Source: Alphaproteobacteria bacterium
Lineage (GTDB): Bacteria; Pseudomonadota; Alphaproteobacteria; Rs-D84
Length of the DNA stretch: 64,000 bases
NCBI GenBank assembly: GCA_031549365.1
Contig: JAVBPX010000001.1
Span: 96,001 to 160,000 of the forward strand
Direction of reading: 5' to 3'
Of the stretch, positions 28,620 to 64,000 are shown in pieces (position 1 is the stretch's first letter; each line of letters starts with the position of its first letter). The translations under genes and the position numbers were made by a program. The notes under the pieces were generated by a model. That model worked only from the letters and a program-made list of their open reading frames with translations, ran no database searches and was not told the origin of the DNA.

Positions 28620-28640
28620 CATCCGGGATTTTCCCGGATG
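28620..28640. repeat. short family-B palindrome, likely terminator
   Basis: CATCCGGGATTTTCCCGGATG. Confidence 0.65.
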
Positions 28641-28663
28641 TTAAAAAATCAAATAACAATCAA

Positions 28664-29362
28664 TTAAAACAATATATGCAAACGTCCACCAATTGTTAAA
28701 TCAGATTCATCAATTGCATACGACATATATCCAACCCATTGTGTGCGTCCATAAATTTTGTTCAATCCCAAATTAATGAATATGTCATCGAAATCGGATT
28801 CTGTTGATTTTCTGAACGTTACACCCAAATTACTGGACCAGCTTTCTGTAAACCTGAACTGCATTTCTGGTGTAAAATCAATGTTTGCAAAACCATCATC
28901 ATGATCAAAAACCCATGATGTTTTCAAAGTTCCCGTAAATGTAACATTTTTACGAACAGTACCGCCACGAATTCCCAATGTATAAATCGTGTGATAATAT
29001 TCTGGGACATCATCTTTGGCACCAAATCGAATGTCCGCCAATGCGTCGTAAATCATTGACCCCTCGGCCAAACGAACAACCGTTCCGATTTGAACATTTG
29101 CTAATCCGTCTTCGTCGCTATTTAAATCTTCGCGATAACGAATTGCGCCCCAAACAGAAGTATTTGGAGTAACACCCCACAATACTTTTTCTGAAATTTC
29201 TGCAACTTCATGGGTAAAAGATAACCCTGTTGTTGATAAAATGTCATTGCGCGCGGCCATCCATAATGGATCTTCCATGTTTGTTGAAAATGGTCTTTCT
29301 GCCGCCATGGATGCACTTGGCAATACCAATAAACCGGCCAAAATTACTAAATAACGTTTCAT
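28664..29362 (-). CDS. putative outer-membrane beta-barrel protein
   Basis: Signal peptide, alternating amphipathic strands, C-terminal Phe (GRLHILF). Confidence 0.7.
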   Translation of the reverse strand: MKRYLVILAGLLVLPSASMAAERPFSTNMEDPLWMAARNDILSTTGLSFTHEVAEISEKVLWGVTPNTSVWGAIRYREDLNSDEDGLANVQIGTVVRLAEGSMIYDALADIRFGAKDDVPEYYHTIYTLGIRGGTVRKNVTFTGTLKTSWVFDHDDGFANIDFTPEMQFRFTESWSSNLGVTFRKSTESDFDDIFINLGLNKIYGRTQWVGYMSYAIDESDLTIGGRLHILF

Positions 29363-29379
29363 ATTATATGCTCTTTAAA

Positions 29380-30585
29380 TTAAAAATATATCTTTAAACC
29401 AACGCCAACATTGTATTCGCTGCTGTTGTCGATTTTGCCAGTGTACAATTGTTTTCTGACACCTTGGTATACGCGTTCCAACGTCATGTTGTCACCATCA
29501 CCACTATCCCACAATACCATTGACCCGAACACATCCAAAGCAACATATTTATTGAATTGGTATCCCAAATCAGCCCTGGCACCCCATTTTTGATGCCAAC
29601 CAAAATCCCCGATTGCTGTGGATAAATCCAAAGACAATCCGTTCCCGAACGCAGTAAACACACCGACAGTTCCTTCGACGTATACATGATTTTTCCCGTC
29701 TTCCAATACAATAATGTACTGTGCGGCATCCGCTGGATTTACAACACCGATTCCACGCTCTTCGTCATCATACATTGCAATATAAACGTCTGCGGCTGCA
29801 TACAATGTAGACATTTGCATTTTATACCCAACTCTGCCATCCAAAACAAACTGGGACGAAGCATCTTGTTTTGTATACATTAATGATGTGCGCGTAACGA
29901 TCTTGCTGTCTTCGTATGGGCGATATGTAACACCAACACCATAATCATCCAAACCAGAATCACTCTCTTTTAATCCGATAAATTTATAATCTGAATCATG
30001 ATATAATCCGACAACAAAAATTGCGAAATTATCTGTGATTCCAACGCCGAATTCTTGGGTAATATCCAATGATTTTCCCCGCCATTCTGCCACATCACCA
30101 ACAACTGCTGGATTTCCATTTACCAACAACGGGTTATCCAGAGGATCCAAAATTGCACCAACCTTGAAATCCAAATCATATTTATGAAAAGCGGCTTCGG
30201 TTGATGAAACAAAAGCACCCTCGCCCGGCATAAAGAATGGGTGTAACAATGTTTTCTCACGATTTTTTGTTGTCGTGGTGGTTGTTTTATCCCTATAATT
30301 TTTTGCTTTTACAGTCGTTTCACAATTGCTTGTTTTGCAACCATCATAATCATCATAAATGCTGGATGGAGTATAATACATATTTGCGCCACCGCGTGTT
30401 GGTTCTTGGACAGCATATGCGGATCCAGCAACCGTTTGGTTTGACGCATTATATTTATTCCATTCGATATTTTGCTTTGGCTGTTGTGCTTTTTGGGTCA
30501 AATTTGCTTGGTACGATGGATAACTAGCTGCATTCGCAACGCCAACAGAAAACAACCCCAGCGCTAACAGAGATACTTTTTTCAT
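29380..30585 (-). CDS. putative outer-membrane beta-barrel protein
   Basis: MKK signal peptide ending ANA, RBS AGGAG, C-terminal VGVGLKIYF beta-signal. Confidence 0.72.
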   Translation of the reverse strand: MKKVSLLALGLFSVGVANAASYPSYQANLTQKAQQPKQNIEWNKYNASNQTVAGSAYAVQEPTRGGANMYYTPSSIYDDYDGCKTSNCETTVKAKNYRDKTTTTTTKNREKTLLHPFFMPGEGAFVSSTEAAFHKYDLDFKVGAILDPLDNPLLVNGNPAVVGDVAEWRGKSLDITQEFGVGITDNFAIFVVGLYHDSDYKFIGLKESDSGLDDYGVGVTYRPYEDSKIVTRTSLMYTKQDASSQFVLDGRVGYKMQMSTLYAAADVYIAMYDDEERGIGVVNPADAAQYIIVLEDGKNHVYVEGTVGVFTAFGNGLSLDLSTAIGDFGWHQKWGARADLGYQFNKYVALDVFGSMVLWDSGDGDNMTLERVYQGVRKQLYTGKIDNSSEYNVGVGLKIYF

Positions 30586-50882: not shown

Positions 50883-51649
50883 AAACAGCCGTAATTATAC
50901 CAACACGTTTAAAATCAACACGATTACCAAACAAACCATTAATTGATATTAATGGCAAAACCATGATCCAACATGTTTATGAAAATGTTGCCGCTATTTA
51001 TGATCGTGATGATATTTATATCGCATCCGGGGACGCTGAAATAATTGATGTTGCGAATAAGTTCGGCGCAAAATGCTTGTTAACCGACCCAACTCTGCCA
51101 TCTGGTACGGATCGAATTGCTGCCGCATTAAAACAAATTGATCCGGACGGTTCCAAATACGATGTTATCGTTAATTTTCAGGGCGACGGCATAAACGTTG
51201 ACCCAAAATTGAATAATGAACTGGTTGCTATAATGCGCGAAACAAATGCAGACATTGTAACCGTTTGCCAAAAAATCACTGATGCTGATGAAATCCAAAA
51301 CCCAAATTTGGTTAAAATTGCGATGGGGTTAAGCAATAATGAAACCGTTGGCCGTTGTTTGTATTTTTCACGCGCCCCAATTCCATTTGACCGCGATTTG
51401 GACGGCACTCCCAAGCTTGCCTATTGGCACATAGGCATATATGTTTACAATGCAAAATCATTGCAGAGGTTTGTTGAATTACCTGTTGGGATATTGGAAA
51501 ATACCGAAAAATTGGAACAATTGCGCGCATTGGAAAATGGCATGACAATATACGCTAAATTGGTTGATGATGTCCGCTTGATTAAACAAGCACCTGCGGA
51601 TATCAACACCCCGCAAGAATATGCAGAAGCATTAAAGTGGATAAAATAA
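50879..51649 (+). CDS. kdsB: 3-deoxy-manno-octulosonate cytidylyltransferase
   Basis: STRLPNKPL, SGTDRI, NFQGD, YFSRAPIP, HIGIY, EKLEQLRALE. Confidence 0.95.
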   Translation: MKTAVIIPTRLKSTRLPNKPLIDINGKTMIQHVYENVAAIYDRDDIYIASGDAEIIDVANKFGAKCLLTDPTLPSGTDRIAAALKQIDPDGSKYDVIVNFQGDGINVDPKLNNELVAIMRETNADIVTVCQKITDADEIQNPNLVKIAMGLSNNETVGRCLYFSRAPIPFDRDLDGTPKLAYWHIGIYVYNAKSLQRFVELPVGILENTEKLEQLRALENGMTIYAKLVDDVRLIKQAPADINTPQEYAEALKWIK

Positions 51650-51666
51650 TCCGCCCTAATCTTTGT

Positions 51667-51708
51667 TGTTAATTCGGGGAAAATTAAAAATTTACTCCCG
51701 AATTAACA
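51667..51708. repeat. intergenic palindrome family A
   Basis: TGTTAATTCGGGGAAAATTAAAAATTTACTCCCGAATTAACA. Confidence 0.75.
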
Positions 51709-51781
51709 AAATAACATCCAAATAATTATATAATATTTATCCTTGCACTTTTGTAAAAATCAACTTAATATACCCCCATTC

Positions 51782-51873
51782 GGAGAGGTGGCAGAGCCCG
51801 GTTGAATGCGCTCGACTCGAAATCGAGTATACTGGCGACAGTATCGGGGGTTCGAATCCCCCCCTCTCCGCCA
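51782..51873 (+). tRNA. tRNA-Ser(CGA)
   Basis: GGAGAGG/CCTCTCC acceptor, CTCGA-CT-CGA-AA-TCGAG anticodon arm, long variable arm, TTCGAAT, G73-CCA. Confidence 0.96.
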
Positions 51874-51926
51874 GACAAGATATTGATTTTACTACAATTT
51901 TTTACAAAATCGATAACCCTTGAATT

Positions 51927-51951
51927 ATCCCCGGAATTCGGGGATTTTTTT
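51927..51951 (+). terminator. terminator after tRNA-Ser
   Basis: ATCCCCG-GAATT-CGGGGAT followed by a T run. Confidence 0.8.
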
Positions 51952-52088
51952 GATGCGATTTTAAGGTTATTGCAATGGTATGTGATTTAATATGTGAAAA
52001 TACGGCGATATTTTGATGTTTACATACAATGCCCGTTTTTGGCAGTGCACTGTTCATTGGTGCGAGGAAATTTTAAGGGAGTTTATTA

Positions 52089-52191
52089 TTGACTTTTTTG
52101 ATGATTTGTGGTATAATGCAGAGTATATTAGGACGGATTTTATCCGTCTTTTTTAATTTTAGTCCCGCTATTTTTGGCGGGGCTTTTTTTT
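52089..52191 (+). promoter_or_regulatory. sigma70 promoter followed by two terminator-like hairpins
   Basis: TTGACT-17-TATAAT (52089-52117); GACGGA-TTTTA-TCCGTC+T run; CCCGCTA-TTTT-TGGCGGG+T run. Confidence 0.65.
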
Positions 52192-52210
52192 ATATTTTTA
52201 AGGGAGTAAT

Positions 52211-52990
52211 ATGAAAAATAATTTTTTTAACGAACAATCTTTAAATTCTGATATTAAAACTCAGATTATCTTAGCTACATTTAAACTTTGGCTTCAAGAC
52301 AATAAAAAGGAACAAAATCTATCTTATATTGATCTATTTTCAGGGCCTGGCATATATGATGATGGAACATTATCTACACCGATATGTATTTTACAGGAAA
52401 TTTGCAATAATAAGAGAATGGCACAGAGATTCAATGTGATCTTAAATGATTATAATGCAGAATTTATTGCAAAATTGCGTCGTATGATTTTGAATGTGAA
52501 AAATGCTAGGTTTATAAAAACTTTGGTTACTTCGATTGGTAATGCTGAAAGTTTTCAAAAGACCGTATCTAATAATGAACATATCTTCATGTTAATTGAT
52601 CCTTGGGGATGGAAGGGTATAAATAGAAATTATATTAATAATATGTTATTAAATAAGGACTGTGATATTGCGGTGATGTTTAATTTTAATCAGTTTAATC
52701 GGTTTATGAATTTTGATATCGCAGATGAATTGTTTAATGATTTGTTTGATAAAAAAACTTTGCACGAAATACGTAAATTTTGTAGCACAAATCCAAAATC
52801 GGAAAGAGAACAATTCGTGATAGATAAATTTGTGAAAATGGTTTGTAAAAATTGTGAAAATTGTAATTACACGCCATTTAAATTTAAGATGGAAAAATCG
52901 ACGCGTACAAGCCATTATATTATTTTTATAATTCGTGATAAAGATAGATTTCAAGCAACGAAAACTTTGTTAAATCAATACTTGGCTTGA
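52211..52990 (+). CDS. tcmP: three-Cys-motif partner protein (TcmP, SAM-methyltransferase-like fold)
   Basis: YIDLFSGPGxYDDG...TP, LIDPWGWKG; directly upstream of DUF5131. Confidence 0.8.
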   Translation: MKNNFFNEQSLNSDIKTQIILATFKLWLQDNKKEQNLSYIDLFSGPGIYDDGTLSTPICILQEICNNKRMAQRFNVILNDYNAEFIAKLRRMILNVKNARFIKTLVTSIGNAESFQKTVSNNEHIFMLIDPWGWKGINRNYINNMLLNKDCDIAVMFNFNQFNRFMNFDIADELFNDLFDKKTLHEIRKFCSTNPKSEREQFVIDKFVKMVCKNCENCNYTPFKFKMEKSTRTSHYIIFIIRDKDRFQATKTLLNQYLA

Positions 52991-53021
52991 AAAATAATAT
53001 CGTTTCTGGCATAATGTGAAT

Positions 53022-53756
53022 ATGGCAGAAAAATCTAAACTTGAATGGACGGATGCAACGTGGAACCCAGTTGTTGGATGTACAAAGTACAGCGATGGGT
53101 GTATAAATTGTTATGCAAAACCAATTGCAGAACGTTTGTGTAGACAAGGAGTTTTTGGATACGAAAATGGTTTTAAAATGACATTGCGTCCAGAGCGTTT
53201 GGAAATTCCATTGCATTGGAAAAAACCAAGATTAATATTTGTAGACTCCATGTGCGATTTATTTCACGATGATGTGCCATTAGAATATATTCAGAAAGTT
53301 TTTGCAATAATGAAGCGTGCAGATTGGCATGTTTATACCATATTAACAAAACGATCAAAGCGTTTGCGTGAATTGGCGTCAAACCTTGAATGGATGCCGC
53401 ATGTTGTAATGGGTGTAACGATTGAATCCGATAAATATCGTGATAGGCTGGATGATTTGAAGGCTGTGCCTGCATATATGCGATATTTATCATTGGAGCC
53501 ATTGTTGGGACCAATTAACCGATTGGATTTGGATGGAATTGATTGGGTTATTGCTGGTGGAGAATCCGGACCAAATGCACGGCAACTGGATACAAATTGG
53601 GTCAGAGAAATTCGCGATTGGACATTGGAACAAAAAGCTGCGTTTTGGTTTAAACAGTATAGCGAGTATGGGGGACAGCATAAAGACCCTATTTTAGATG
53701 GGGAAAAATATAAGCAATTTCCAGATTTTAAAACCGGAAAACCGAGTCTGTTTTAA
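53022..53756 (+). CDS. DUF5131 (phage Gp37/Gp68-like) radical-SAM-like protein
   Basis: EWTDATWNPVVGCTKYSDGCINCYA, SMCDLFH, LTKR, SLEPLLG, WVIAGGESG, FKQ. Confidence 0.9.
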   Translation: MAEKSKLEWTDATWNPVVGCTKYSDGCINCYAKPIAERLCRQGVFGYENGFKMTLRPERLEIPLHWKKPRLIFVDSMCDLFHDDVPLEYIQKVFAIMKRADWHVYTILTKRSKRLRELASNLEWMPHVVMGVTIESDKYRDRLDDLKAVPAYMRYLSLEPLLGPINRLDLDGIDWVIAGGESGPNARQLDTNWVREIRDWTLEQKAAFWFKQYSEYGGQHKDPILDGEKYKQFPDFKTGKPSLF

Positions 53757-53959
53757 TGGCAATGATTTATACAATCGGTTTTAGTGGAAAAACAGCGGAC
53801 ATTTTTACGGATGTTCTGGATGCTGTTGGTGTCAAAAAATTGATTGATATTCGTTTATGGCGGGCGTCACGATTTGTTCCATGGGCATCGGGTGCAAATT
53901 TGCAGAAACTTTTGGGTGACAAATATTGTTATATGCCGGAATTGACACCAACAAAATGA
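53756..53959 (+). pseudogene. truncated DUF488-family protein
   Basis: IYTIGFS...LIDIR...PELTPT then stop at 67 aa; C-terminal CxHR region absent. Confidence 0.7.
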
Positions 53960-54387
53960 AGAAATTATTAAAAAGATAAATTATCGTCTGGGTACAAATG
54001 CGGATAAAATAAAACTCATTGAAAAAAACTATAATCGTCCGAATATTGAAGAATATTTGCAAATGTTTTCAAAAAACATGGATGGAGTAGATGAGACCAG
54101 AATTGCCCACTTTTATTTGAAATATTGCGATTTCAAACATTCCAATGTACTGACGTGTTTAGAAGGACAAATACTTGATTTTCAGGTTGAACGCGTTATT
54201 ACAGTAATGGTTATGCTTGTTACATATTTGAGTATGGCAAAATTAGAGCCCTATGTACATCCTGTCGGTATTTAAATATCAATTATCCAGTAGGAAAATA
54301 CTATTATGGATCAATGCTGTTAGTGAGACTTTCTTGACTTTTTAACATTATAATAGTAGCATCCTTTGTGAGAAAAATGAGGTTTAA

Positions 54388-55980
54388 ATGTCGGATAACA
54401 ATGCCATTCATTGGGCGGATTTTATTGCAGAGCGAATAATTCGTGAAAAAGGCGATAAAGATTTATATACTTTGGCCAGCGGAATTACCCCGTCTGGGAC
54501 AATTCATATTGGAAAATTTCGCGAGATTATAACCACCGAATTGGTGTCCCGGGCGTTGGTTCGCATGGGGAAAAAGGTACGTTTTATTTATTCTTGGGAT
54601 GATTATGATACTTTTCGCAAAGTGCCGGGCGATATGCCACAGCAAGAGATGTTAAAAGAATTATTGTATCAGCCGATTGTCGATATTCCAGATGTTTACG
54701 GAACAGAAAGTTCTTATGCTCGGCATAACGAAGTGTCGTTGGAACGTATTGCTCCGGTATTGGGCATAACAAATATTGAATTTATTTATCAAAGTCGGAT
54801 GTATCGTAGTGGCGAATATAATGATTTGATTATAAAGGTTATGGATTCGCGAGATAAAATTCGTGATATTTTACAGACATCTAAAAGCCAGGGGATGGAT
54901 GAAGAGTTTTATCCTATTGCAACTTATTGCAGCAATTGCAATCGTGACCGAATTGTTTTTTCAAATTATAATACATCAGATAAAACAGTTGATTATAAGT
55001 GTAAGTTATGCAACCACACGGAAAAGTTAAATTTACGCGATTCAAGGCGGCTGAAATTGCCTTGGCGAATTGATTGGCCAATGCGTTGGGCATTTGAAAA
55101 TGTTGATTTTGAACCAGGTGGGACAGATCATTCTTCGGCTGGGGGCAGTTTTGATACCAGCAAAGTAATCGTTAGTGAGATTTTTGGAGGGGCGTCTCCG
55201 GTTTATGCAAAATATGCATTTGTATTGCCAAAGGGTGAAAGCAAAAAGATGTCTTCGTCAATTGGTAACGGGTTTTCTGTGGAAAGCGTTTTGCAGGTTT
55301 ATGAACCAGAAATGATACGTTGGTTTTTTGCTTCGTATAAACCAGATGCGCAGTTCAGTATGGCTTTTGACATTGATGTTTTGAAGAATTACGAAGCATT
55401 TGACCGAATGGAACGCGTGGTTTATGGATTGGAAGATGTGAATGATGACAGGCGTGCAGTGCAGCGGCGTATTTATGAAATGTCTCAGATAAATTTTGAT
55501 GGAAAGATTCCGGAACAGATGCCTTTTCAGCCGAGTTTTAGGCACCTGTGTAATCAGTTGCAAATAAACGAATTTGATATCGAAAAAACCAGAGCATATT
55601 ACGCCCACCAAATCAAAAATGACATCGATGAACAACGGTATCAAGAAAGGTCCAAATGCGCAGTATTTTGGATACAAAATTGTGCTTCGGATGATTTCAA
55701 ACTTATATTGAATTCCGAAAAACGCAATGACATGACATTGTCGACAGATGAAAAAAAGTTCGTGAATGACTTGCACAAAATGTTGGAGATTGATTGGGAC
55801 AATTTAGATGACGAACGCGTCTTACAAAGTAAGGTCGGTGAATTAATTAAGGCCAACGGATTGGAAGTACTAAATGCGTATAAACTGTTATATCAGTTAC
55901 TGGTCAATCGGGACCAAGGACCAAAGCTGGCCGGATTTATTTTGGGTATTGGCAAGGATAAGATTCTGAATTTGTTGTAA
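54388..55980 (+). CDS. lysS: class I lysine--tRNA ligase (spirochaete-like)
   Basis: HWAD, ASGITPSGTIHIG, SWDDYD..RKVP, KLPWRIDWPMRW, KMSSS, GPKLAGFI. Confidence 0.93.
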   Translation: MSDNNAIHWADFIAERIIREKGDKDLYTLASGITPSGTIHIGKFREIITTELVSRALVRMGKKVRFIYSWDDYDTFRKVPGDMPQQEMLKELLYQPIVDIPDVYGTESSYARHNEVSLERIAPVLGITNIEFIYQSRMYRSGEYNDLIIKVMDSRDKIRDILQTSKSQGMDEEFYPIATYCSNCNRDRIVFSNYNTSDKTVDYKCKLCNHTEKLNLRDSRRLKLPWRIDWPMRWAFENVDFEPGGTDHSSAGGSFDTSKVIVSEIFGGASPVYAKYAFVLPKGESKKMSSSIGNGFSVESVLQVYEPEMIRWFFASYKPDAQFSMAFDIDVLKNYEAFDRMERVVYGLEDVNDDRRAVQRRIYEMSQINFDGKIPEQMPFQPSFRHLCNQLQINEFDIEKTRAYYAHQIKNDIDEQRYQERSKCAVFWIQNCASDDFKLILNSEKRNDMTLSTDEKKFVNDLHKMLEIDWDNLDDERVLQSKVGELIKANGLEVLNAYKLLYQLLVNRDQGPKLAGFILGIGKDKILNLL

Positions 55981-55984
55981 TTCA

Positions 55985-56749
55985 TTACCTTTCTTGTATG
56001 TGCTTTCCCATAATGCACTGGCGAGCGATGATTTTTTTGATGTTACTGCCGACAAGTTGCGATGTTAGAGGGCAATGATAGCTTTTTTTGAAATTTTCAG
56101 TGCATTGTTGTAAAGTTTCTGTAAAATTTGGTTTATAAAATTTTCCAATTTCTATACCCACAGGGGTGTTTTCAAGATTTCCCTTTGCTATTTCGTTATC
56201 AAAATTTTGTTTTGTAGTCGCAATTATATGTTTATTATCAGTGGTATGCAAGTGTGGTTCAGCCCTCTCCCATTGCGGTTGTGTAGATACAAATTTATCG
56301 GCCTCTTGCTTGTATGTTGAGTGTAATAGTGGACTATCTTTTAGTATTATTTTAGGTAAGTGCAACACCCATAAAATAATTCGAGCATATTGAAATTGCG
56401 ATAATATGCAATCAGTTAATACGCATGAAGAACTCATAATTGACGGTAGAGAATCTTTAATGTTATTTGCAATGTATATGAGATCTGAAAGGCATTCTTT
56501 GTCTAGGCAAAATCCAAGGTGGTCAAAATCCTTTTGAAGGTCGTAATGCAGTTTCTTCATGTATTCAAGAAATTTTTTTTCTTGTTCGTGGTTGGATTTT
56601 TTTAGTAATATAAAAGTGTCAACATCTGAATTTGTTTTATCTTCACCTCGAGCAGTTGAGCCACATATAAATGAAAACTCTAGATTGTCTCCGAATATCT
56701 CTCGGGTATCTAAGTCCAATTGTTTTATCTGTTTTTTTGTTATTTTCAT
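55985..56749 (-). CDS. Pol-beta-superfamily nucleotidyltransferase-domain protein
   Basis: FICGSTARGEDKTNSDVDTFI (hGS...DxD). Confidence 0.8.
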   Translation of the reverse strand: MKITKKQIKQLDLDTREIFGDNLEFSFICGSTARGEDKTNSDVDTFILLKKSNHEQEKKFLEYMKKLHYDLQKDFDHLGFCLDKECLSDLIYIANNIKDSLPSIMSSSCVLTDCILSQFQYARIILWVLHLPKIILKDSPLLHSTYKQEADKFVSTQPQWERAEPHLHTTDNKHIIATTKQNFDNEIAKGNLENTPVGIEIGKFYKPNFTETLQQCTENFKKSYHCPLTSQLVGSNIKKIIARQCIMGKHIQER

Positions 56750-56771
56750 TATTATTTACCAGTTGCTGTTT

Positions 56772-58229
56772 TTATAAGTATCTTACGATTTCTCTCTGAG
56801 GTAGAATTGGTTGTGGAGTAAATATGCCTTTGTAATAGATTCCAGATGCATGCTTTCCTATACCGCCATATGGTTTGTATCCATGCTCGAAATTGTGTAG
56901 ATGGTCATTCACAAGTATAGAGTCCGGCATATGGATTTTTTCATCATAAAGTATGGCTATTGTTTCTTCTTTTAATTTTCCATAAACTGTCAAAAACATA
57001 GCTGATTCTTTATATTTTGTATTTTTGAAATAGTTTATAAGTTCATTTTCTGAATCATAAGGTTGTATAAAGAATATTGGACAGAACAATTCTTCGTAAT
57101 TAGCTCCTTCAGAGAGATCCTTTACTATTACCGTAGGATATATCATATTTTTTGAAGCGTCTATAAGACCTCCATAATAAATATTCTTCCGATTGTTATA
57201 AATTAGTTTTGCAGCATTTAATGCGTATCCATCTTTTGTATTAGGCATTATTATCGTGGATTTTTCAGGATTTGAATTACAGTTTTCATGAATTTCTTTT
57301 AATTTATTTATTAAAATTTCTTGAAAATCTGTTAAACAATCTCTTTTCACAAGTAATGCATTTGGGGCGGCACAGTCTTGTCCTTGGTTGTATGTTCCAA
57401 GCTCGATACATGCTTCGACGGCTTCTTTGATATTTGACCGAAGATTTATTATAACCGGGTTTTGTCCAGCACCACCAAAGAAACAATATAACTCTTTGTT
57501 ATACGATCTTTTTACTTTCTTCATGTTTTCATATGTACCTGTAAATATAAATGCCTTTATTTCATTTCGTGTAATATTGAGAAAATCCTCTCTTCCTCCA
57601 TAGAATATTTCTATATTTGGCATACTTGATAAATTTAACAATTTATCTAGCTCTTTAAAAACGTCTTGAGAATCATTTGGATATCTAACATATACTTTCT
57701 TACAAATATACGATGGAACAAGAGCAAAACAAACAAAGGAATACAGCAATTGGTTTAAAGGCATAAATGACGCGATTGGTGCTTTCTCTTTTAAAAAGTA
57801 TTCCTTATTTATGGTAAGATTTGTAAGAAGGTCTATTGATCTATCAATTTCATCACATATTGTATTATAGGTGGCATATGATGAAAGAGCTTTATAGATA
57901 TCTTCTCTGCGCTGATTTAATTGAAACGAAAAATTGAGCGCGTCTGTTAAAATTTTATCAAAGTCTAGATTATTTTCCACGTCTTTTTTAGAAATATTTG
58001 TTCTTTGTCCAAACCAAGAGCCAATTTCCTTTTTACTGAGTTTCTCTGTTTTTACTATAAGCCCTAAGTCATTTTTTTCATACTCCAGGCTGAGATTGTT
58101 AATATTGTGGAGTATATTATCTTTAGCTTTTGTATCCATCTCATCAAATTTGAGGATAAAAGTCAGCCCATTTTTATCTTGTAAAATGGTTCCAATAGGC
58201 TGTTTCTTTTTCCTTACTATGAAGTCCAT
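56772..58229 (-). CDS. aldehyde dehydrogenase-fold protein (atypical)
   Basis: PLNQ, FTGT, GGAGQNP, NQGQDC (catalytic Cys), EELFCP, PYGG; RBS AAGGAG. Confidence 0.85.
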   Translation of the reverse strand: MDFIVRKKKQPIGTILQDKNGLTFILKFDEMDTKAKDNILHNINNLSLEYEKNDLGLIVKTEKLSKKEIGSWFGQRTNISKKDVENNLDFDKILTDALNFSFQLNQRREDIYKALSSYATYNTICDEIDRSIDLLTNLTINKEYFLKEKAPIASFMPLNQLLYSFVCFALVPSYICKKVYVRYPNDSQDVFKELDKLLNLSSMPNIEIFYGGREDFLNITRNEIKAFIFTGTYENMKKVKRSYNKELYCFFGGAGQNPVIINLRSNIKEAVEACIELGTYNQGQDCAAPNALLVKRDCLTDFQEILINKLKEIHENCNSNPEKSTIIMPNTKDGYALNAAKLIYNNRKNIYYGGLIDASKNMIYPTVIVKDLSEGANYEELFCPIFFIQPYDSENELINYFKNTKYKESAMFLTVYGKLKEETIAILYDEKIHMPDSILVNDHLHNFEHGYKPYGGIGKHASGIYYKGIFTPQPILPQREIVRYL

Positions 58230-58260
58230 ATTTTCTCCTTGATTAATGTGGACCTTAAGT

Positions 58261-59760
58261 TTATCTCAACTTTATTTTTTTTAACATGGGAAATGTTAAA
58301 ACATCTCTGATATTAGATGAGTTTGTTAACATCATGGCGAGGCGATCTGCACCTATTCCCATGCCTCCTGTAGGGGGCATACCGTATTCTAAAGCTGTAA
58401 GAAAGGCTTCATCCATTTGCATTGCTTCAGGATCATCTGAAAGAGATGCTTGTTCTTCGAATTTTTTTCTTTGATCTATTGGATTTGATAATTCTGAGTA
58501 AGCTTCACCAAATTCAATGCCGCCAACATAGAGCATAAATCTTTCAGAAAGACGTGGGTTTTGTCGATGTATTTTTGTCAGCGGAGATATATCATATGGA
58601 ACATCCATTACGAAAGTTGGTTGAATAAGAGTTTTTTCGACTTTTTCTTCAAATATAGTTTCTACTACTTTACCCCAAGATTCAGTTCCCTTGAGTCGAA
58701 TTTTGTGTTTTTGGGCAATGCTATGAATTTCCCTATCGCTCATGTTTATAAGATCTTCGTTCAGCGCTTCTGATGCTGCGTCTACCATTGGTAATCTTTT
58801 AAATGGTTTTTCAAGGTCTATTAAGGCATCTTTCCAAGTAATGTGGAGAGAGCTGTTGACAGCCATAGATGAATCTCGCAGCAATCTTTCTGCGAGAATC
58901 ATCATGTCAAAATAGTCTTTATAAGAGCCATATATATCTAGCATTGTGAATTCTGGACTGTGGCGATTATCAATACCTTCATTGCGGAAATTTTTACCAA
59001 TTTCAAACACTCGAGGAATGCCTCCAACAATGAGCCGCTTTAGTTCAAGTTCAGATGCTATCCTGAGATAAAAATCGTCTTTAAGAGAATTATAATGTGT
59101 AGTAAATGGAGCAGCATTTGCACCGGCTTTTACTGGGTGAAGTATAGGTGTTTCTACCTCTATATATCCCTCATCGTGCATTACTTCGCGTATAGCATAC
59201 ATTGCTTTCGCCCTATTGAGAACAACATCCCGAGAGTTTTTGTTTACTATAAGATCTACGGATTTATTGCGGTATCTTTCTTCGGAGTCTGTTAGACCGT
59301 GGTATTTTTCAGGAAGAATATTCAATGATTTTGACAGCATTGTTACTTCCAGAGGAGTAACAGAAACTGCTCCTCGCAAAGTTTTTTTAATTCCTCCCAA
59401 AACACCAATTATATCACCAATGTCAAGATTTTTAAGCATGTTATTAAATTGTGTATCTGCTTTTGGATTTTCATTGCAAATTTGAATTTTTCCGGATTCA
59501 TCTTCAACATCGATGAACATTCCGGAATTTCGGATTGCCATAATTCTTCCTGCAATTTTTACAATGTCTTTTGTATCCGCTGTCTTTTCACCAGGTTGAA
59601 GGTGGCCAAATTCAGCTATTATATTACTGGCAAGATGCGTTGGTTTGTATATGTGTGGATATGCGTTTATTCCTTGAGATTCGATGTCTTTAAGTTTTTG
59701 AATCCTTATTTCTTTTAAAGAATTTATTGGTGTCTTATTATCTTTTTTTTGATTTTGCAT
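58261..59760 (-). CDS. lysS: class II lysine--tRNA ligase paralogue (full length, with OB-fold)
   Basis: AGRIMAIR, LPEKYHGL, EVETP, YLRIASEL, FRNEG..HSPEF, YGMPPTGGMGIGADRL. Confidence 0.92.
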   Translation of the reverse strand: MQNQKKDNKTPINSLKEIRIQKLKDIESQGINAYPHIYKPTHLASNIIAEFGHLQPGEKTADTKDIVKIAGRIMAIRNSGMFIDVEDESGKIQICNENPKADTQFNNMLKNLDIGDIIGVLGGIKKTLRGAVSVTPLEVTMLSKSLNILPEKYHGLTDSEERYRNKSVDLIVNKNSRDVVLNRAKAMYAIREVMHDEGYIEVETPILHPVKAGANAAPFTTHYNSLKDDFYLRIASELELKRLIVGGIPRVFEIGKNFRNEGIDNRHSPEFTMLDIYGSYKDYFDMMILAERLLRDSSMAVNSSLHITWKDALIDLEKPFKRLPMVDAASEALNEDLINMSDREIHSIAQKHKIRLKGTESWGKVVETIFEEKVEKTLIQPTFVMDVPYDISPLTKIHRQNPRLSERFMLYVGGIEFGEAYSELSNPIDQRKKFEEQASLSDDPEAMQMDEAFLTALEYGMPPTGGMGIGADRLAMMLTNSSNIRDVLTFPMLKKIKLR

Positions 59761-59782
59761 AGATATACCTTTTTATACTTTT

Positions 59783-59855
59783 TGGGGGGCGGTCCGGATT
59801 TGAACCGTACCTCTGAGGGAAAACTCAGCGTTCTGCCTAATTATACTACCCGCCC
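59783..59855 (-). tRNA. non-canonical tRNA-like gene (73 nt including CCA)
   Basis: GGGCGGGTAGTATAATTAGGCAGAACGCTGAGTTTTCCCTCAGAGGTACGGTTCAAATCCGGACCGCCCCCCA: acceptor GGGCGG/CCGCCC, D-loop GG, CTGAG/CTCAG arm with 6-nt loop, GGTTCAAATCC, CCA. Confidence 0.8.
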
Positions 59856-59938
59856 TATAATTGTGATGAAGTGATCCCATCAACTTATCATTGTTTATGT
59901 CAAAAGCAATTTAAATGTCAATAATTATTTTTTGTTAT

Positions 59939-61051
59939 TTATTTGTTATTTAATATAATTAATGGCACTTGCATTTCGGATGCTGTCCCGCCTGCATGTT
60001 CAGATGCTGGTGAGCCAAACTCTTCCCAAGCTTTTTGATTTTGATGCAATGATTTGTTTCCTATTCCAATTGCGACATAGTCCCCGATTGATTCATCTTC
60101 CAGCACTCTATTCTTGGCAGAATACCAGTGAAGGTAGTTTGTTTTAAAAGTTTCCTTATTGATCAGCAAAAAATCTTTCTCCGAAAATATTTCATAAAAT
60201 ATTCTTTCAAAGCTATTTTTAGCCTCTGGTTTTACGAAAAATTGTGTACAACGCGCCTCACATGAAATCGGCATTATCAGAGTGTCAGCAATACCCGTAA
60301 AATCTTCGATAAATAAGGGCAAAGTATCAATATGACCGTGATCAGCAGTTATGATGAATAATGTATCTGGGCAATTATTTTGCAAATTTATTATTGCATC
60401 TCGTATATTGCAGATACAATTTCTGGCTTCGCCAGACAAAATTCCGTGATCATGGTTAGTGCTATCTGGCTCCGGCCAATACGCGTATATGTAATTTTTA
60501 TTGGCATTTTTTGTATTTGCTATTTTTTCAATAGTTGAACACCATTTCTCAACTGTATTATGCTCTGGTGTAATAAACTGAGGCATAACCTCAAAAGCGC
60601 TCCATTCGGAAATATCATTGATTTGGTCAACAAGTAATGCTGGCATTTTTTCCAACGGAGGCTTCGTAAGATGAGATGATTCACCACTATAAAAGTCACA
60701 ATTAGTAAAATTTTCGACAATCTCTCCAGATTCTTTATAATATTGCGACCATCCCAATAACCCATGTGATACAGGCAACAGCCCCGTGCGCAAAGTTGTT
60801 GTGGCGGCAACCGTAGTAGAAGGAACTATTGTATCAATAGTATCATATTTGTTTTTATAAAAATAGTCTGTCACAGAATCGCTTAATACATCCAGCTGTT
60901 CTGTCCCCATTCCGTCTAGGACTATAAGAGCTATGTTTTTGTACACTTCCGATGACCACGAATTTATGATCATTGGATGCGACTCATAATTTGGACATAG
61001 TCCAACAATTTTTTGTATTGCAGATGTTATTGATGTTATATCGTATTTCAT
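59939..61051 (-). CDS. alkaline-phosphatase-superfamily nucleotide pyrophosphatase/phosphodiesterase
   Basis: LIVLDGMG, PSTT, EPDSTNHDHG, ITADHG, EHAG; probable start MKYDI. Confidence 0.85.
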   Translation of the reverse strand: MKYDITSITSAIQKIVGLCPNYESHPMIINSWSSEVYKNIALIVLDGMGTEQLDVLSDSVTDYFYKNKYDTIDTIVPSTTVAATTTLRTGLLPVSHGLLGWSQYYKESGEIVENFTNCDFYSGESSHLTKPPLEKMPALLVDQINDISEWSAFEVMPQFITPEHNTVEKWCSTIEKIANTKNANKNYIYAYWPEPDSTNHDHGILSGEARNCICNIRDAIINLQNNCPDTLFIITADHGHIDTLPLFIEDFTGIADTLIMPISCEARCTQFFVKPEAKNSFERIFYEIFSEKDFLLINKETFKTNYLHWYSAKNRVLEDESIGDYVAIGIGNKSLHQNQKAWEEFGSPASEHAGGTASEMQVPLIILNNK

Positions 61052-61183
61052 GAGGTACATATTAGCAATGACATATCTTGAAGTCAACCGCGTATTTGGT
61101 TGAAAGTTGAGCGGAATTCTAGTTTCGTGGGAATATTGGTTGTTTTTATGTTTTGGTAATGAATTTTCATTGTTATTTAAAAT

Positions 61184-61437
61184 AAATTCCCTGTTAGGGT
61201 TTTAGGGAATTTGGGGTGATGTGGGTAGTGGATGCCGCGGTGTGGTTGGGGTTGTGAATTTGGGACCAATTGGTAAAATGCGATTTTAGGGGCAAAACCA
61301 CAAAATTTCCCTGTAAATTCCCTGATGTTGTTTGTGTGATTAATTTTGCTGTGTGGAATCGCGTAACCTTGCGATGCACACATCAATTCCGTGCTAATAA
61401 CGCACGTCATTGTGTGTTTATATGCTCGGTTTCCCTG
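61184..61437. repeat. clustered (AAA)TTCCCTG motifs at the island right boundary
   Basis: AAATTCCCT(61184)-11 nt-AGGGAATTT(61212) inverted pair; direct copies at 61304, 61315 and 61431. Confidence 0.65.
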
Positions 61438-61714
61438 ATAATCGGTTGGATGTTGGTGGGGTGTTGGATTATTCGGGGAAATAATCGGGATAAGTGATTT
61501 ATGAGGTGTTTATCATGTTTAGTATGCTCTACACCAATAACATTTACACCTCCGCCAGAATTGGCCGTTTTATTTTTATCCGCGCGCGGCCCCGAAAACT
61601 CGCGGCTTTACTTTTTATTTTCACAGTGGTATGGTGATTTATATCAAAAATCTGCAGATTTGGTTCTCCTTACATACGATTACCATTTTTGCACTGTGAA
61701 CTTTGGGGGCTGTT

Positions 61715-62206
61715 ATGACCGCAACAATACATTTAGTACATGGTTTTATTGGGTTTGGAAAAACTACGATTGCGAAAAGATTGGCGCATGAATTGCCTAC
61801 GGTTATTCTGTCTGATGATGAATTTATGGTAAAATTATATGGCAATAATCCTCCTGCTGATTTATTTCGTGATTATTATAATCGTATAGATAATTTAATT
61901 TGGAATTTAGCAAAAGAGATTGTAAAAACTGGCGCAGATGTAATTATTGATTCCGGTTTTTGGAGTAAAGAAAGTCGTGCAACTGCATATAATCGCGCAA
62001 AAAATATTACAAAAAATGTAGTGTTTCACAACATTCAATGCAATATGGATATTGCCCGGCAACGAGCATTGGAACGGACAAAAATGAATTCCGGCGAATT
62101 GGCTGTGGATGAAAATACGTTTGATTTATTTAAAATTCAATTTCAACCAATTGATTCTGATGAAAATTATATAGTAATTAACCACGATAATAATATTAAA
62201 AAATGA
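61715..62206 (+). CDS. AAA_33-type P-loop kinase/ATPase
   Basis: GFIGFGKTT, LSDDE, IIDSGFW, R...R lid. Confidence 0.85.
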   Translation: MTATIHLVHGFIGFGKTTIAKRLAHELPTVILSDDEFMVKLYGNNPPADLFRDYYNRIDNLIWNLAKEIVKTGADVIIDSGFWSKESRATAYNRAKNITKNVVFHNIQCNMDIARQRALERTKMNSGELAVDENTFDLFKIQFQPIDSDENYIVINHDNNIKK

Positions 62207-62769
62207 AACAAGTAAAACGCTGTGAATGGTGCGGGACAGACCCACTATATGTTAAATACCACGATACCGAATGGGGACGTTTGGTAGATGACGACCAAAC
62301 AATGTTTGAATTTTTAACGTTGGAATCAGCCCAGGCCGGCTTATCATGGATAACCGTATTGCGCAAACGGGAAAATTATAGACAGGCTTTTGCAAATTTT
62401 GATGTGAATGCAGTTGCTAAATTTACTGACAAAGATGTCGAAAAATTAATGCAAAATAATGGCATCATTCGAAATCGCTTAAAAATCCGTGCAGCAATTA
62501 CAAATGCACAAAAATTTATTGAAATACAAAGGGAATTCAAAAGCTTTTGTAATTATATTCGCGGCTTTTTACCAAACGAAAAACCCATTGTAAATAAACC
62601 GAAATCATTATCCGACATCCCTGCCCGCTCAGAACTCTCCGACGCGATTTCAACGGACATGAAAAAACGTGGTTTTAAATTTTTCGGATCAACCATATGT
62701 TATGCACATTTGCAAGCAACCGGATACATAAATGACCATTTGGCTCATTGCTCGTTCCGCAACAATTAA
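62203..62769 (+). CDS. tag: DNA-3-methyladenine glycosylase I
   Basis: RCEW, YHDTEWG, ESAQAGLSW, IIRNRLKI, NDHLAHC. Confidence 0.96.
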   Translation: MKQVKRCEWCGTDPLYVKYHDTEWGRLVDDDQTMFEFLTLESAQAGLSWITVLRKRENYRQAFANFDVNAVAKFTDKDVEKLMQNNGIIRNRLKIRAAITNAQKFIEIQREFKSFCNYIRGFLPNEKPIVNKPKSLSDIPARSELSDAISTDMKKRGFKFFGSTICYAHLQATGYINDHLAHCSFRNN

Positions 62770-62815
62770 TACAATGTGCTTTTATTTTGCCGCAACATAA
62801 TGTATAATCGAGCCC

Positions 62816-63124
62816 ATGGGAATAAACAAAACATTATACATTATTATAACTTTTTTCGCTTTGTCCGCCTGTTCTCCATCGGTATTACAGGTTGGGAATC
62901 CCGAACAAAAGCCGACCGAACCAACACACACCGAAACAATTCGCCATTATTTTTGGGGGGCAATTGGAACAAACACAATTGATGCCGAAAAAATTTGCAC
63001 TGGGAATCATTTAAATTCAATAGAAACCAGCGATAACTTTGTAAATGGAATTTTAAACTTTTTCACTGGCGGAATTTACATGCCTGTTACTTATTCATTT
63101 TATTGCAATGCTGTAAAAATTTAA
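62816..63124 (+). CDS. Bor/Iss family lipoprotein
   Basis: Lipobox LSAC; HYFWG...IC...FVNG...GIYMP...YC. Confidence 0.85.
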   Translation: MGINKTLYIIITFFALSACSPSVLQVGNPEQKPTEPTHTETIRHYFWGAIGTNTIDAEKICTGNHLNSIETSDNFVNGILNFFTGGIYMPVTYSFYCNAVKI

Positions 63125-63756
63125 TTTTTTTGTTGTTTTTCTTTTGTTTTTTTAATTATTTTATTACAGGAAATGTATGTAATATCTGCAAAAACCATAC
63201 CTATGAATGCACCAACAATTACGTCGGACGGATAATGAGCCCCCACAATAACGCGCGATACACCCATTAATACAGCCAGAGTCCAGGTCAATGGTTTAAA
63301 TTTTTTGAATAATAATCCCAACATTACCATCCCTGCAAACGTTGCAACCGTGTGCCCAGAAGGAAAAGAATGGAACGCGTCCGAAAAAGTAAATGGATAA
63401 AAACCCGATTGCCCCAACGCATCGTAAAACATTGGTCGCATACGACCAAATCCAAATTTTAAAATCCATGCAAACGCAGACGCCGAAATCAATGACATCA
63501 TCACAAAAAATGCTGTTCTGGTTATTTTTTTGTTTTTTAAAATCCAACCAGCGATAAAACAAGACCCAACCACCAAAAACCAAATTTTGGCTGCGCCCAT
63601 TTGCGTACCTCTGTCCCATAAAATATTTTGATGTTCAATCATCCAAACATGTACCGGCAAATCCAGCCAAAATATACCCAAAACAGCCAAAATGCCGGAA
63701 ATCACAAACCCAACAACTATGTTTTTTATAGATAATTTATCATTTTTGATAAACAT
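63121..63756 (-). CDS. PAP2 family phosphatase
   Basis: KFGFGRMRP, SFPSGH, SRVIVGAHYPSD. Confidence 0.92.
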   Translation of the reverse strand: MFIKNDKLSIKNIVVGFVISGILAVLGIFWLDLPVHVWMIEHQNILWDRGTQMGAAKIWFLVVGSCFIAGWILKNKKITRTAFFVMMSLISASAFAWILKFGFGRMRPMFYDALGQSGFYPFTFSDAFHSFPSGHTVATFAGMVMLGLLFKKFKPLTWTLAVLMGVSRVIVGAHYPSDVIVGAFIGMVFADITYISCNKIIKKTKEKQQKN

Positions 63757-63775
63757 GGGATTCCCCTTCTCTCTA

Positions 63776-63982
63776 TTATGGAATCAATTTAATTAACGCG
63801 TCATAAACCTTTGGGTTTGAAAATATTTGCGCAACAACACCCTGGGTTAACAAATCTTCATCTTGGCCATTTGCAACTTCGGGACAACCACGACGAATTT
63901 TTTCAATACGCGATTGATCTGTTTCCGAATACCACGTTTCCAATCCTGTTTTGAAATCTTTGTTTAAAATGTTAACAAACAT
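63776..63982 (-). CDS. small hypothetical protein (may be the 3' end of a longer gene)
   Basis: 68-aa ORF co-oriented with the PAP2 gene at the window edge. Confidence 0.45.
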   Translation of the reverse strand: MFVNILNKDFKTGLETWYSETDQSRIEKIRRGCPEVANGQDEDLLTQGVVAQIFSNPKVYDALIKLIP

Positions 63983-64000
63983 AACTTCTTGCTGCTTTTG

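Follow-up and report, generated by a model that had tools for sequence, protein, structure and literature searches.

Why does a small bacterial genome carry, immediately upstream of an extra gene for lysyl-tRNA synthetase (LysRS), a tRNA-like gene whose anticodon loop has six nucleotides instead of seven? This question is raised by a 73-nt element, referred to here as the odd tRNA, which is located on the minus strand at 59855..59783 (59783..59855 in forward numbering) of the window, i.e., the whole 64,000-nt stretch of contig JAVBPX010000001.1 analyzed in this study. The odd tRNA lies in a block of genes that are all encoded on the minus strand, in the order of a phosphodiesterase-like protein, the odd tRNA, a divergent LysRS (LysRS2'), an aldehyde dehydrogenase (ALDH)/LuxC-like enzyme, and a nucleotidyltransferase (NTase). 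We tentatively consider, at a little short of an even chance, that the odd tRNA is a genuine, maintained gene serving this accessory operon, as a dedicated lysine carrier outside translation that would feed a reduction similar to those of glutamyl-tRNA reductase (GluTR) and LuxC. In kind, it may be a tRNA-like RNA that has a role outside translation and is linked to a synthetase paralogue, and the enzyme family to which the ALDH-like enzyme belongs may be the larger find.

Structure of the odd tRNA

The odd tRNA ends in an encoded terminal CCA. Its acceptor stem, as read from the sequence, comprises six Watson-Crick pairs (GGGCGG/CCGCCC) and leaves G7 without a partner; U8 and A9 are present. 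The D stem (GTAT/GAAC) has one A.A opposition and one T.G pair, and the D loop contains A14, G18G19, and A21. The 6-nt loop TTTTCC (UUUUCC) is closed by an anticodon stem of 5 bp without mismatches (CTGAG/CTCAG). The variable region consists of 3 nt, the T stem (TACGG/CCGGA) has one A.G opposition, the T loop reads TTCAAAT (UUCAAAU), and the discriminator is C73. All the structural features listed in the original prediction, in which the strand had gone unstated, were borne out by this direct reading of the minus strand.

Comparison with canonical tRNAs revealed that the conserved tertiary nucleotides (U8, A14, G18G19, A21, T54-T55-C56, and A58) and the 3' CCA are all present in the odd tRNA. 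In canonical tRNAs, the anticodon loop has 7 nt, including U33 and a purine at position 37; the loop of the odd tRNA has 6 nt and no purine. Instead of the canonical 7 + 5 = 12 bp, the odd tRNA has six acceptor pairs and five T pairs (one of them A.G), 11 bp in total. ARAGORN with default settings reported the element as "tRNA-???" with a two-base "anticodon" tt, i.e., a 6-nt loop, and labeled it (Lys|Glu), in agreement with the pseudo or undetermined call that had been expected. It was the sole call with a loop other than 7 nt in the 0.91-Mb genome. Fetched loci totaling 1.27 Mb gave 88 tRNA calls, with the odd tRNA again as the sole odd-loop call, listed twice because two loci overlap there. 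Under a lowered threshold (-ps85), 43 odd-loop calls were obtained from the 1.27 Mb, two of which were the odd tRNA and one of which, when inspected, was poor. Default-threshold calls alone are therefore meaningful. The odd tRNA call is more than chance.

Two features were found to be signs of structural maintenance. The G+C content of the odd tRNA is 0.56, compared with 0.18 and 0.23 in the flanking spacers and 0.39 in the genome, and the number of mismatched stem pairs in the ARAGORN pairing is two, the same as in the genuine tRNA-Thr(ggt) and tRNA-Ser(gga). The D-stem mismatch had previously been listed as an oddity. However, the genuine tRNA-Thr(ggt) of this genome (G000:C6:48025-48098) has the identical GTAT/GAAC D stem with the A.A opposition, and this opposition is therefore not a sign of decay here. 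When compared with the isotypes of the genome, the odd tRNA was identical at 53 of 73 positions at best (to a tRNA-Thr) and at 51 positions to tRNA-Lys. This likeness is merely generic, indicating that the odd tRNA is not a recent copy of a native tRNA.

Validation of the sequence and RNA-library contigs

An indel in the T/C runs of the loop, which the original prediction had raised as a possible assembly error, was excluded by a second assembly and an RNA-library contig carrying the same letters. In the Logan assembly of DNA run X1, one 9512-nt contig with a depth of 32.6 covered 55900-61200 without any difference or gap; this agreement is non-independent support, as X1 probably represents the source sample. 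In X2, a metatranscriptome library of another sample from the same study (invertebrate gut metagenome), a 218-nt contig with a depth of 2.5 covered 59705-59922, likewise with 0 differences and 0 gaps. The odd tRNA sequence is not an assembly error.

The 218-nt contig spans 67 nt on the 5' side of the odd tRNA, the whole odd tRNA, and the first 56 nt of the LysRS2' gene. Further X2 contigs covered 59391-59707, 58243-58452, 55900-56194, and 60681-60828, and the one at 58243-58452 bridges the junction between the LysRS2' and ALDH-like genes. The parts of the block without X2 or X3 cover are uninformative either way.

Organization of the gene block

The block starts, probably, with the gene at 59939..61087 (minus strand), which encodes a phosphodiesterase/pyrophosphatase-like protein of the alkaline-phosphatase superfamily (382 aa; PF01663, E 1.5e-12). 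The odd tRNA follows after 83 nt. Its CCA end is separated from the ATG of the LysRS2' gene by 22 nt (59761..59782), an A+T-rich spacer with a G+C content of 0.18 that likely contains a ribosome-binding site. LysRS2' (58261..59760, minus strand, 499 aa) is a divergent, full-length class II LysRS, in which an OB-fold anticodon domain is combined with a catalytic core. After 31 nt comes the gene for the ALDH/LuxC-like enzyme (56772..58229, minus strand, 485 aa; PF00171, 68 bits), and after another 22 nt the last gene of the block, encoding a Pol-beta-type NTase (55985..56749, minus strand, 254 aa; PF01909 and PF18765). Tail to tail with the block lies a gene on the plus strand (54388..55980) for a full-length class I LysRS (LysRS1; 530 aa; TIGR00467, 478 bits).

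The four protein-coding genes of the block are uninterrupted open reading frames of 254-499 aa under translation table 11, with spacings of 22-83 nt, and no terminator-like sites were detected between the block genes. A promoter scan was uninformative, yielding 23 sites against 23.5 expected by chance. The borders of the block were not fixed by synteny; in three relatives (G020, G015, and G004), the sole syntenic part was the gene pair at 52211-53756. A sequence search found no relative of solved structure for the phosphodiesterase-like protein and the NTase, and PADLOC returned weak NTase-domain matches and nothing more.

LysRS2' and lysine charging in the genome

Lys(ttt), Lys(ctt), Glu(ttc), and Glu(ctc) are among the 44 normal tRNAs of the genome (911 kb in 15 contigs, 97.6% complete), and all 44 genes encode CCA. 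In addition to LysRS1, a housekeeping class II LysRS (LysRS2) is encoded on contig C5 (G000:C5:19866-21308, minus strand), which is 48% identical to LysRS2'. Since the normal tRNA-Lys set, the C5 enzyme, and LysRS1 are already present, the odd tRNA and LysRS2' are surplus to translation.

LysRS2' passed the cut-offs of two lysine-tRNA ligase models with 596 bits for NF001756 (cut-off, 468) and 541 bits for TIGR00499 (cut-off, 428), and contains the Pfam domains PF00152 and PF01336. At 92 positions with at least 93% conservation in the other 61 sequences of an alignment, LysRS2' keeps 83. FRNEG of motif 2 and GxGxGxDR of motif 3 (G466, G468, G470, D472, and R473) are kept. The nine departures are E131A, Q165N, R166K, H223Y, E275D, G303S, D426N, G442D, and D452A; the lost E131 is otherwise nearly invariant and is located in the anticodon-binding domain. 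The C5 enzyme departs at one of 90 conserved positions. In a quick maximum-likelihood tree of 62 sequences, for which a careful search was unfinished, the C5 enzyme was placed on a branch of 0.19 among genomes of the same family, and LysRS2' on a branch of 1.11 beside housekeeping enzymes of other families of the order. Judged by its sequence, LysRS2' looks catalytically whole but fast-evolving.

No aminoacyl-tRNA users of the MprF type (PF09924) or FemAB type (PF02388) were found in this 97.6% complete genome.

Three LysRS genes, one of class I and two of class II, thus occur in one 0.91-Mb genome. Across the order, the LysRS type is a mosaic: in one family (f3), class I was found in 13 of 14 genomes, and in another (f1), two class II clades occur and class I was found in 4 of 36 genomes. 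A tRNA-Gly(gcc) gene lies within 1.5 kb of the housekeeping LysRS2 gene in many relatives, and on contig C1 of the present genome, tRNA-Lys(ttt) adjoins tRNA-Gly(gcc).

The ALDH/LuxC-like enzyme and its family

The 485-aa enzyme scored 68 bits against the ALDH superfamily model PF00171 (cut-off, 23), and its catalytic Cys is present in the nucleophile motif YNQGQDCAAPN, which lines up with the corresponding motif of ALDHs of solved structure. In hydrolytic ALDHs, the general-base Glu of the (L)E(L)GG motif hydrolyses the thioester. This Glu is lost in the family, whose profile has N where 6k0z has E in a profile alignment to solved ALDHs; the protein in the window reads FFGGAGQNP at this site when compared by eye with the family consensus. 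Because the Cys is kept and the general-base Glu is lost, the thioester would be reduced or passed on rather than hydrolysed.

A word-indexed search yielded 77 family members, the best with 40% identity, and an exhaustive search yielded 1142 representatives at E<=1e-3, of which 219 also reached E<=1e-30. The members are labeled by their sources as "aldehyde dehydrogenase" or "lysyl-tRNA synthetase class 1", and the source names include Candidatus Woesebacteria, Peregrinibacteria, Paceibacterota, Gracilibacteria, Cytophagales, Kibdelosporangium, and Xenorhabdus. The LuxC model PF05893 was matched by members P0016, P0004, P0003, and P0041 and by the fusion protein of G255, a 4.5-Mb genome of the same phylum, with E 3e-6 to 3e-5, above the cut-off of 21 bits.

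Pfam scanning was performed for 32 long members, namely all 24 of at least 800 aa among the best 150 and eight of 600-760 aa. A class I LysRS domain was found on either side of the ALDH-like domain in 11 of the 32, and a class II D/K/N OB-fold anticodon-binding domain in four, one of which also has a class II core. Three members (P0117, P0123, and P0185) have a Pol-beta NTase domain, and five have other second domains (GNAT in one, aminotransferase in two, PLD in one, and weak AAA_33 in one); the remaining nine have no second Pfam domain. A match to the LysRS1 C-terminus (hhalign probability 93%, E 3e-7) was found for the last 85 residues of 32 proteins that are about 615 aa long, several of them named Patescibacteria-group by their sources. 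The fusion protein of G255 (L201:8660-11479) is a 939-aa LysRS1-ALDH-like protein, and its gene is followed by that of an MFS transporter.

Since the family is fused to anticodon-binding parts of both LysRS classes, the ALDH-like enzyme may meet its substrate on tRNA-Lys. Fusions of these domains recur elsewhere, and the order of LysRS2', ALDH-like enzyme, and NTase in the window, with LysRS1 adjacent, can therefore be taken as the split form; the operon looks like a split form of a lysyl-tRNA-using module. These domain combinations make the ALDH/LuxC-like family, which comprises at least 219 clusters at E<=1e-30, a candidate for lysyl-tRNA-dependent reductases.

In P0097, the fused class II part (residues about 421-871) gave a near-full-length alignment to LysRS2 with 30-33% identity, and inspection by eye showed that the motif-2 arginine is replaced (VGNVE where LysRS has FRNEG). 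This class II part may be a tRNA-holding pseudo-synthetase. Another member, P0087, has a weak AAA_33 match (E 7e-5, below cut-off) on the N-terminal side of its ALDH-like domain.

Distribution of the block and the enzyme family

The ALDH-like protein, the NTase, and the phosphodiesterase-like protein were each found in one of 61 genomes searched, which was the present genome in every case; the block is thus confined to it among these genomes. No close orthologue of LysRS2' was detected, the best matches being 48% identical in 32 loci from genome contigs and 51% identical in 56 loci from metagenome contigs, and neither contig collection provided an orthologous operon for comparison.

In a sample of the phylum, the ALDH-like family was present in 2 of 401 genomes, the present one and G255, and in the class of G255 it was present in 1 of 400 scored genomes, G255 itself. 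As the phylum includes genomes of 2-8 Mb and G255 carries HphA/Slam genes, the phylum is likely to be Pseudomonadota, and an assignment to the candidate phyla radiation was rejected. Among viral contigs, 68 stretches matched the search pattern and none was confirmed as a family member; phage records gave two weak matches with 25% identity, from Staphylococcus phage. Plasmids carried distant homologues only (23-29% identity). One of these (29% identity) is encoded on pBMB171 of Bacillus thuringiensis (168927-170108) in a cluster of the nonribosomal peptide synthetase (NRPS) type that contains genes for a thiamine pyrophosphate enzyme, a class I adenylate-forming enzyme, a ketosynthase-like protein, a cyclic-peptide exporter, and an NRPS.

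Proposed pathway

In the pathway that we tentatively propose, the odd tRNA would be excised from the operon transcript and charged with lysine by LysRS2' via the U-run of its loop; LysRS1 may assist, as might be imagined from tRNA-Other of Bacillus cereus. The molecule would be kept from the ribosome, EF-Tu, and the housekeeping enzymes by its discriminator C73 together with the 6-nt loop and an acceptor/T helix of 11 bp (6+5). The Cys of the ALDH-like enzyme would then attack the lysyl ester; the resulting thioester would either yield lysine aldehyde upon reduction with NAD(P)H or pass its lysyl group on. By analogy with GluTR and LuxE/LuxC, the path would lead from lysine through Lys-tRNA and Lys-S-enzyme to lysine aldehyde. 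The NTase and the phosphodiesterase-like protein might act on the product or on the RNA. That the NTase, fused or neighboring, nucleotidylates the aldehyde product or its alcohol is pure speculation.

A farther-reaching proposal, which we regard as possible but doubtful, is that the odd tRNA and LysRS2' constitute a natural orthogonal pair, i.e., a non-decoding lysine carrier with its own class II LysRS, which feeds a new class of aminoacyl-tRNA reductase with the ALDH/LuxC fold. The family would recognize tRNA-Lys through the borrowed anticodon-binding domains of LysRS1 and LysRS2 and yield lysine aldehyde. If this is true, the odd tRNA would be a rare natural tRNA that has been reshaped to be invisible to the ribosome and still serves a synthetase, and the natural orthogonal pair would be relevant to genetic-code engineering. 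The reaction would be a second, independently evolved aminoacyl-tRNA reduction after that of GluTR, catalyzed by an ALDH/LuxC-type enzyme that repeatedly captured LysRS domains, and a family scattered over bacterial groups would gain a testable function. The enzyme-family lead stands alone even if the odd tRNA is a relic.

Comparison with known systems

GluTR (HemA) uses a Cys to attack the ester of Glu-tRNA(Glu), and NADPH reduces the thioester to an amino aldehyde. By analogy, the chemistry proposed here would be the same. However, GluTR has a fold unrelated to the ALDH superfamily and uses the normal translational tRNA-Glu, whereas the candidate carrier here is a separate, malformed tRNA. 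LuxE/LuxC and carboxylic-acid reductases resemble the present system in that an adenylate-forming activator is paired or fused with a thiol-dependent, aldehyde-releasing reductase. They differ in the activator, which here is a LysRS of either class, in many cases represented by its tRNA-binding parts alone. A LysRS as the activating partner suggests a tRNA-bound substrate rather than an acyl-AMP or carrier-protein substrate. The ALDH-like enzyme appears to belong to neither the GluTR family nor the LuxC family, though the proposed chemistry is alike.

Staphylococci have non-proteinogenic tRNA-Gly isoacceptors for peptidoglycan bridges, with features that weaken their use in translation. These tRNAs differ from the odd tRNA in having a normal 7-nt loop and in being charged by the housekeeping GlyRS, and, as described above, the search of the present genome revealed no FemAB-type transferase. 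Pseudo-tRNAs in peptidoglycan synthesis are also mentioned in PMC3399842. Allo-tRNAs, as presented in PMC5389517, are likewise bacterial tRNAs that depart from the 7/5 arrangement of acceptor and T stems, and their charging is often unclear. They retain a normal loop and an overall helix length of 12 bp (8/4 or 9/3), in contrast to the 6+5 = 11 bp and the 6-nt loop of the odd tRNA.

The nearest described case is tRNA-Other of B. cereus. It resembles the odd tRNA in that it is an extra tRNA-like gene outside the decoding set, that both LysRS classes are present in the genome, and that there is a link to lysine charging, according to PMC3399842, PMC5389517, and PMC2916919. It is set apart by its description in PMC3399842, which gives it a Trp (CCA) anticodon, a position flanking a pathogenicity island, and a regulatory role. 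In the present case, the loop is the 6-nt UUUUCC, and the gene heads an operon with a third LysRS and the ALDH-like enzyme.

In a literature search that left subscription journals largely outside its scope, we found no description of a six-nucleotide anticodon loop and no paper combining most terms of the present system, and the terms "lysyl-tRNA reductase" and "aminoacyl-tRNA reductase" occurred in none of the papers among the matches listed.

Evaluation of alternative explanations

Several observations weigh against the odd tRNA being a lysine carrier. Its score of 28.6 bits against the Rfam tRNA model RF00005 narrowly missed the gathering score of 29 (E 5.5e-4 on 451 nt and 2.7e-4 on the whole genome), and the other 44 tRNAs of the genome scored 39.5-77.9 bits. 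UUUU is present in the loop, as looked for with the anticodon U34-U35-U36, but the 6-nt loop leaves the register undefined and is equally readable as UUC (Glu). The discriminator is C73, whereas both genuine tRNA-Lys of the genome have A73; PMC9976931 names the anticodon and A73 as the lysine identity for class II LysRS and U35/U36 as being used by both LysRS classes. Minimum-free-energy prediction yields a fold other than the cloverleaf (z-score -1.73), with the cloverleaf lying 5-9 kcal/mol above this minimum. This folding is non-discriminating because many genuine tRNAs here fold likewise, 8 of 44 lying at least 5.4 kcal/mol above their own minimum.

Searches among relatives pointed in the same direction. 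BLAST against 60 relatives gave short T-arm and D-arm matches only, the best two of which were inside tRNA-Cys genes. A covariance model was derived from this one sequence (self score, 107.9 bits) and run with strict filters; it had a match at E<=0.01 in one of 101 genomes, the present genome itself, and in 0 of 100 relatives; the homologues sharing the 6-nt loop for which the original prediction had proposed an Infernal search were thus not found in these 100 relatives. ARAGORN detected no odd tRNA beside LysRS2 in 29 relatives' loci, nor beside LysRS1 in 19 relatives' loci and three extended loci. The odd tRNA is thus a single instance, with no homologue that would reveal conservation of the 6-nt loop or covariation.

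LysRS1 is not specific to the block, since orthologues with 69-72% identity occur in three relatives (G017, G036, and G012) that lack the other block genes, and its adjacency is therefore possibly a coincidence. The ALDH-like protein of the window matched PF00171 only and gave no match to the LuxC model PF05893 at E<=1e-3. No tRNA gene was found within 10 kb on each side of the ALDH-like locus of G255 or at the distant-homologue locus of pBMB171; as these two other readable family loci are without a tRNA, a special tRNA is not a general part of the system, and the family is clearly able to function in its absence. The RNA-library contigs reveal no ends, strand, or level, and DNA carry-over is possible; one X2 contig runs across the point where the NTase and LysRS1 genes meet tail to tail, as would result from either read-through or DNA.

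A rival explanation is that the odd tRNA is a relic pseudo-tRNA, once a normal tRNA (probably tRNA-Lys or tRNA-Glu), which either arrived together with the acquired block or marks the site of its integration. It would have lost one nucleotide from the loop and another where the acceptor and T stems meet, and would now be functionless. We consider this unlikely. It would account for the Rfam score under the tRNA threshold, the three length defects, the A.A and A.G oppositions in the D and T stems, and the unpaired G7, and it would fit the lack of a homologue showing constraint, the best native isotype match of 53/73, and the two other ALDH-like loci read without a tRNA. Islands, moreover, often adjoin tRNA or pseudo-tRNA genes, as PMC3399842 states for tRNA-Other. 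A relic in an A+T-rich reduced genome, however, does not readily explain the G+C contrast to the spacers, the perfect anticodon stem, the intact conserved D-loop and T-loop nucleotides and CCA, and a mismatch count not above that of two genuine tRNAs. When positions 51000-64000 of the window were searched against the genome by BLAST, no repeat of the 3' half of the odd tRNA was found, and the sole other genome match was just 19 nt, inverted, with E 0.7. A position 22 nt before the matching synthetase gene in a compact operon would also be an odd coincidence. The same closeness of the CCA end to the ATG is what a cis-acting tRNA mimic in the LysRS2' leader would show, through which the synthetase would repress its own translation, as E. 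coli ThrRS does via the thrS operator; alternatively, the element could serve solely as a signal for RNase P or other processing, by which the 5' end of the mRNA would be fixed. One RNA-library contig holds both the odd tRNA and the start of LysRS2', and a mimic needs neither a 7-nt loop nor A73 nor the standard helix length. Nevertheless, this explanation is quite improbable in our judgment: G18G19, the UUCAAAU T loop, the full acceptor stem, and the encoded CCA are all kept though an anticodon-arm mimic has no need of them, the CCA encoded by all 44 normal tRNA genes makes the element look like a gene for maturation, and the contigs do not tell a precursor from a stable joint RNA.

Regulation in trans by a poorly charged or uncharged pseudo-tRNA similar to tRNA-Other would be consistent with the coexistence of class I and class II LysRS, which is shared with B. 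cereus. It is reported that tRNA-Other is found off polysomes and is poorly lysylated (PMC3399842) and that it is charged by a complex of both LysRS classes (PMC5389517). We nonetheless hold such a role to be very unlikely here, as tRNA-Other has a Trp anticodon and another setting (PMC3399842), no T-box or other tRNA-sensing RNA was found at Rfam gathering scores in the window or at E<=10 in 59600-60050, and the tight link to a LysRS-fused enzyme family points to use as a substrate. It is scarcely credible that the odd tRNA is a working decoder with an unusual loop (by doublet reading, frameshifting, or post-transcriptional repair) or a sequencing or assembly error in the T/C run. ARAGORN does model such loops as two-base anticodons, and the loop is made of homopolymer runs, but the letters were identical at a depth of 32.6 in X1 and in the X2 RNA contig, purine 37 is lacking, a full set of normal decoders is present, and the block genes are uninterrupted under table 11. 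The original prediction had preferred a non-ribosomal carrier to random decay. Reading the odd tRNA as a lysine carrier is favored by the operon context, the LysRS fusions of the family, the full normal tRNA set, the G+C contrast, and the mismatch count, and the earlier preference is thus partly supported; charging, the loss of decoding, and the loss of EF-Tu determinants are still read from the shape of the molecule.

Other features of the region

Repeats were observed on both sides of the block, at 51.7-54.4 kb and 61.0-61.9 kb, and no credible Rfam family was assigned to them under permissive thresholds. Three non-coding stretches (51778-52229, 51868-52191, and 53756-53956, after tRNA-Ser(cga) and the gene at 53016-53756) are repeated on contig C8 with 82-87% identity; the C8 copies are located at 52246-52701, 28628-28943, and 51418-51618. 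The stretch at 53757-53957 also matches three relatives (G022, G011, and G012) at 71-78%. Just past the block, 61079-61212 and 61497-61572 match C8 at 29614-29747 and 29346-29422, respectively, at 75-86%, and stretches at 61357-61437 match several relatives at 80-85%. An AAA_33 kinase-like gene is located on the plus strand at 61703-62206, 0.6 kb past the block.

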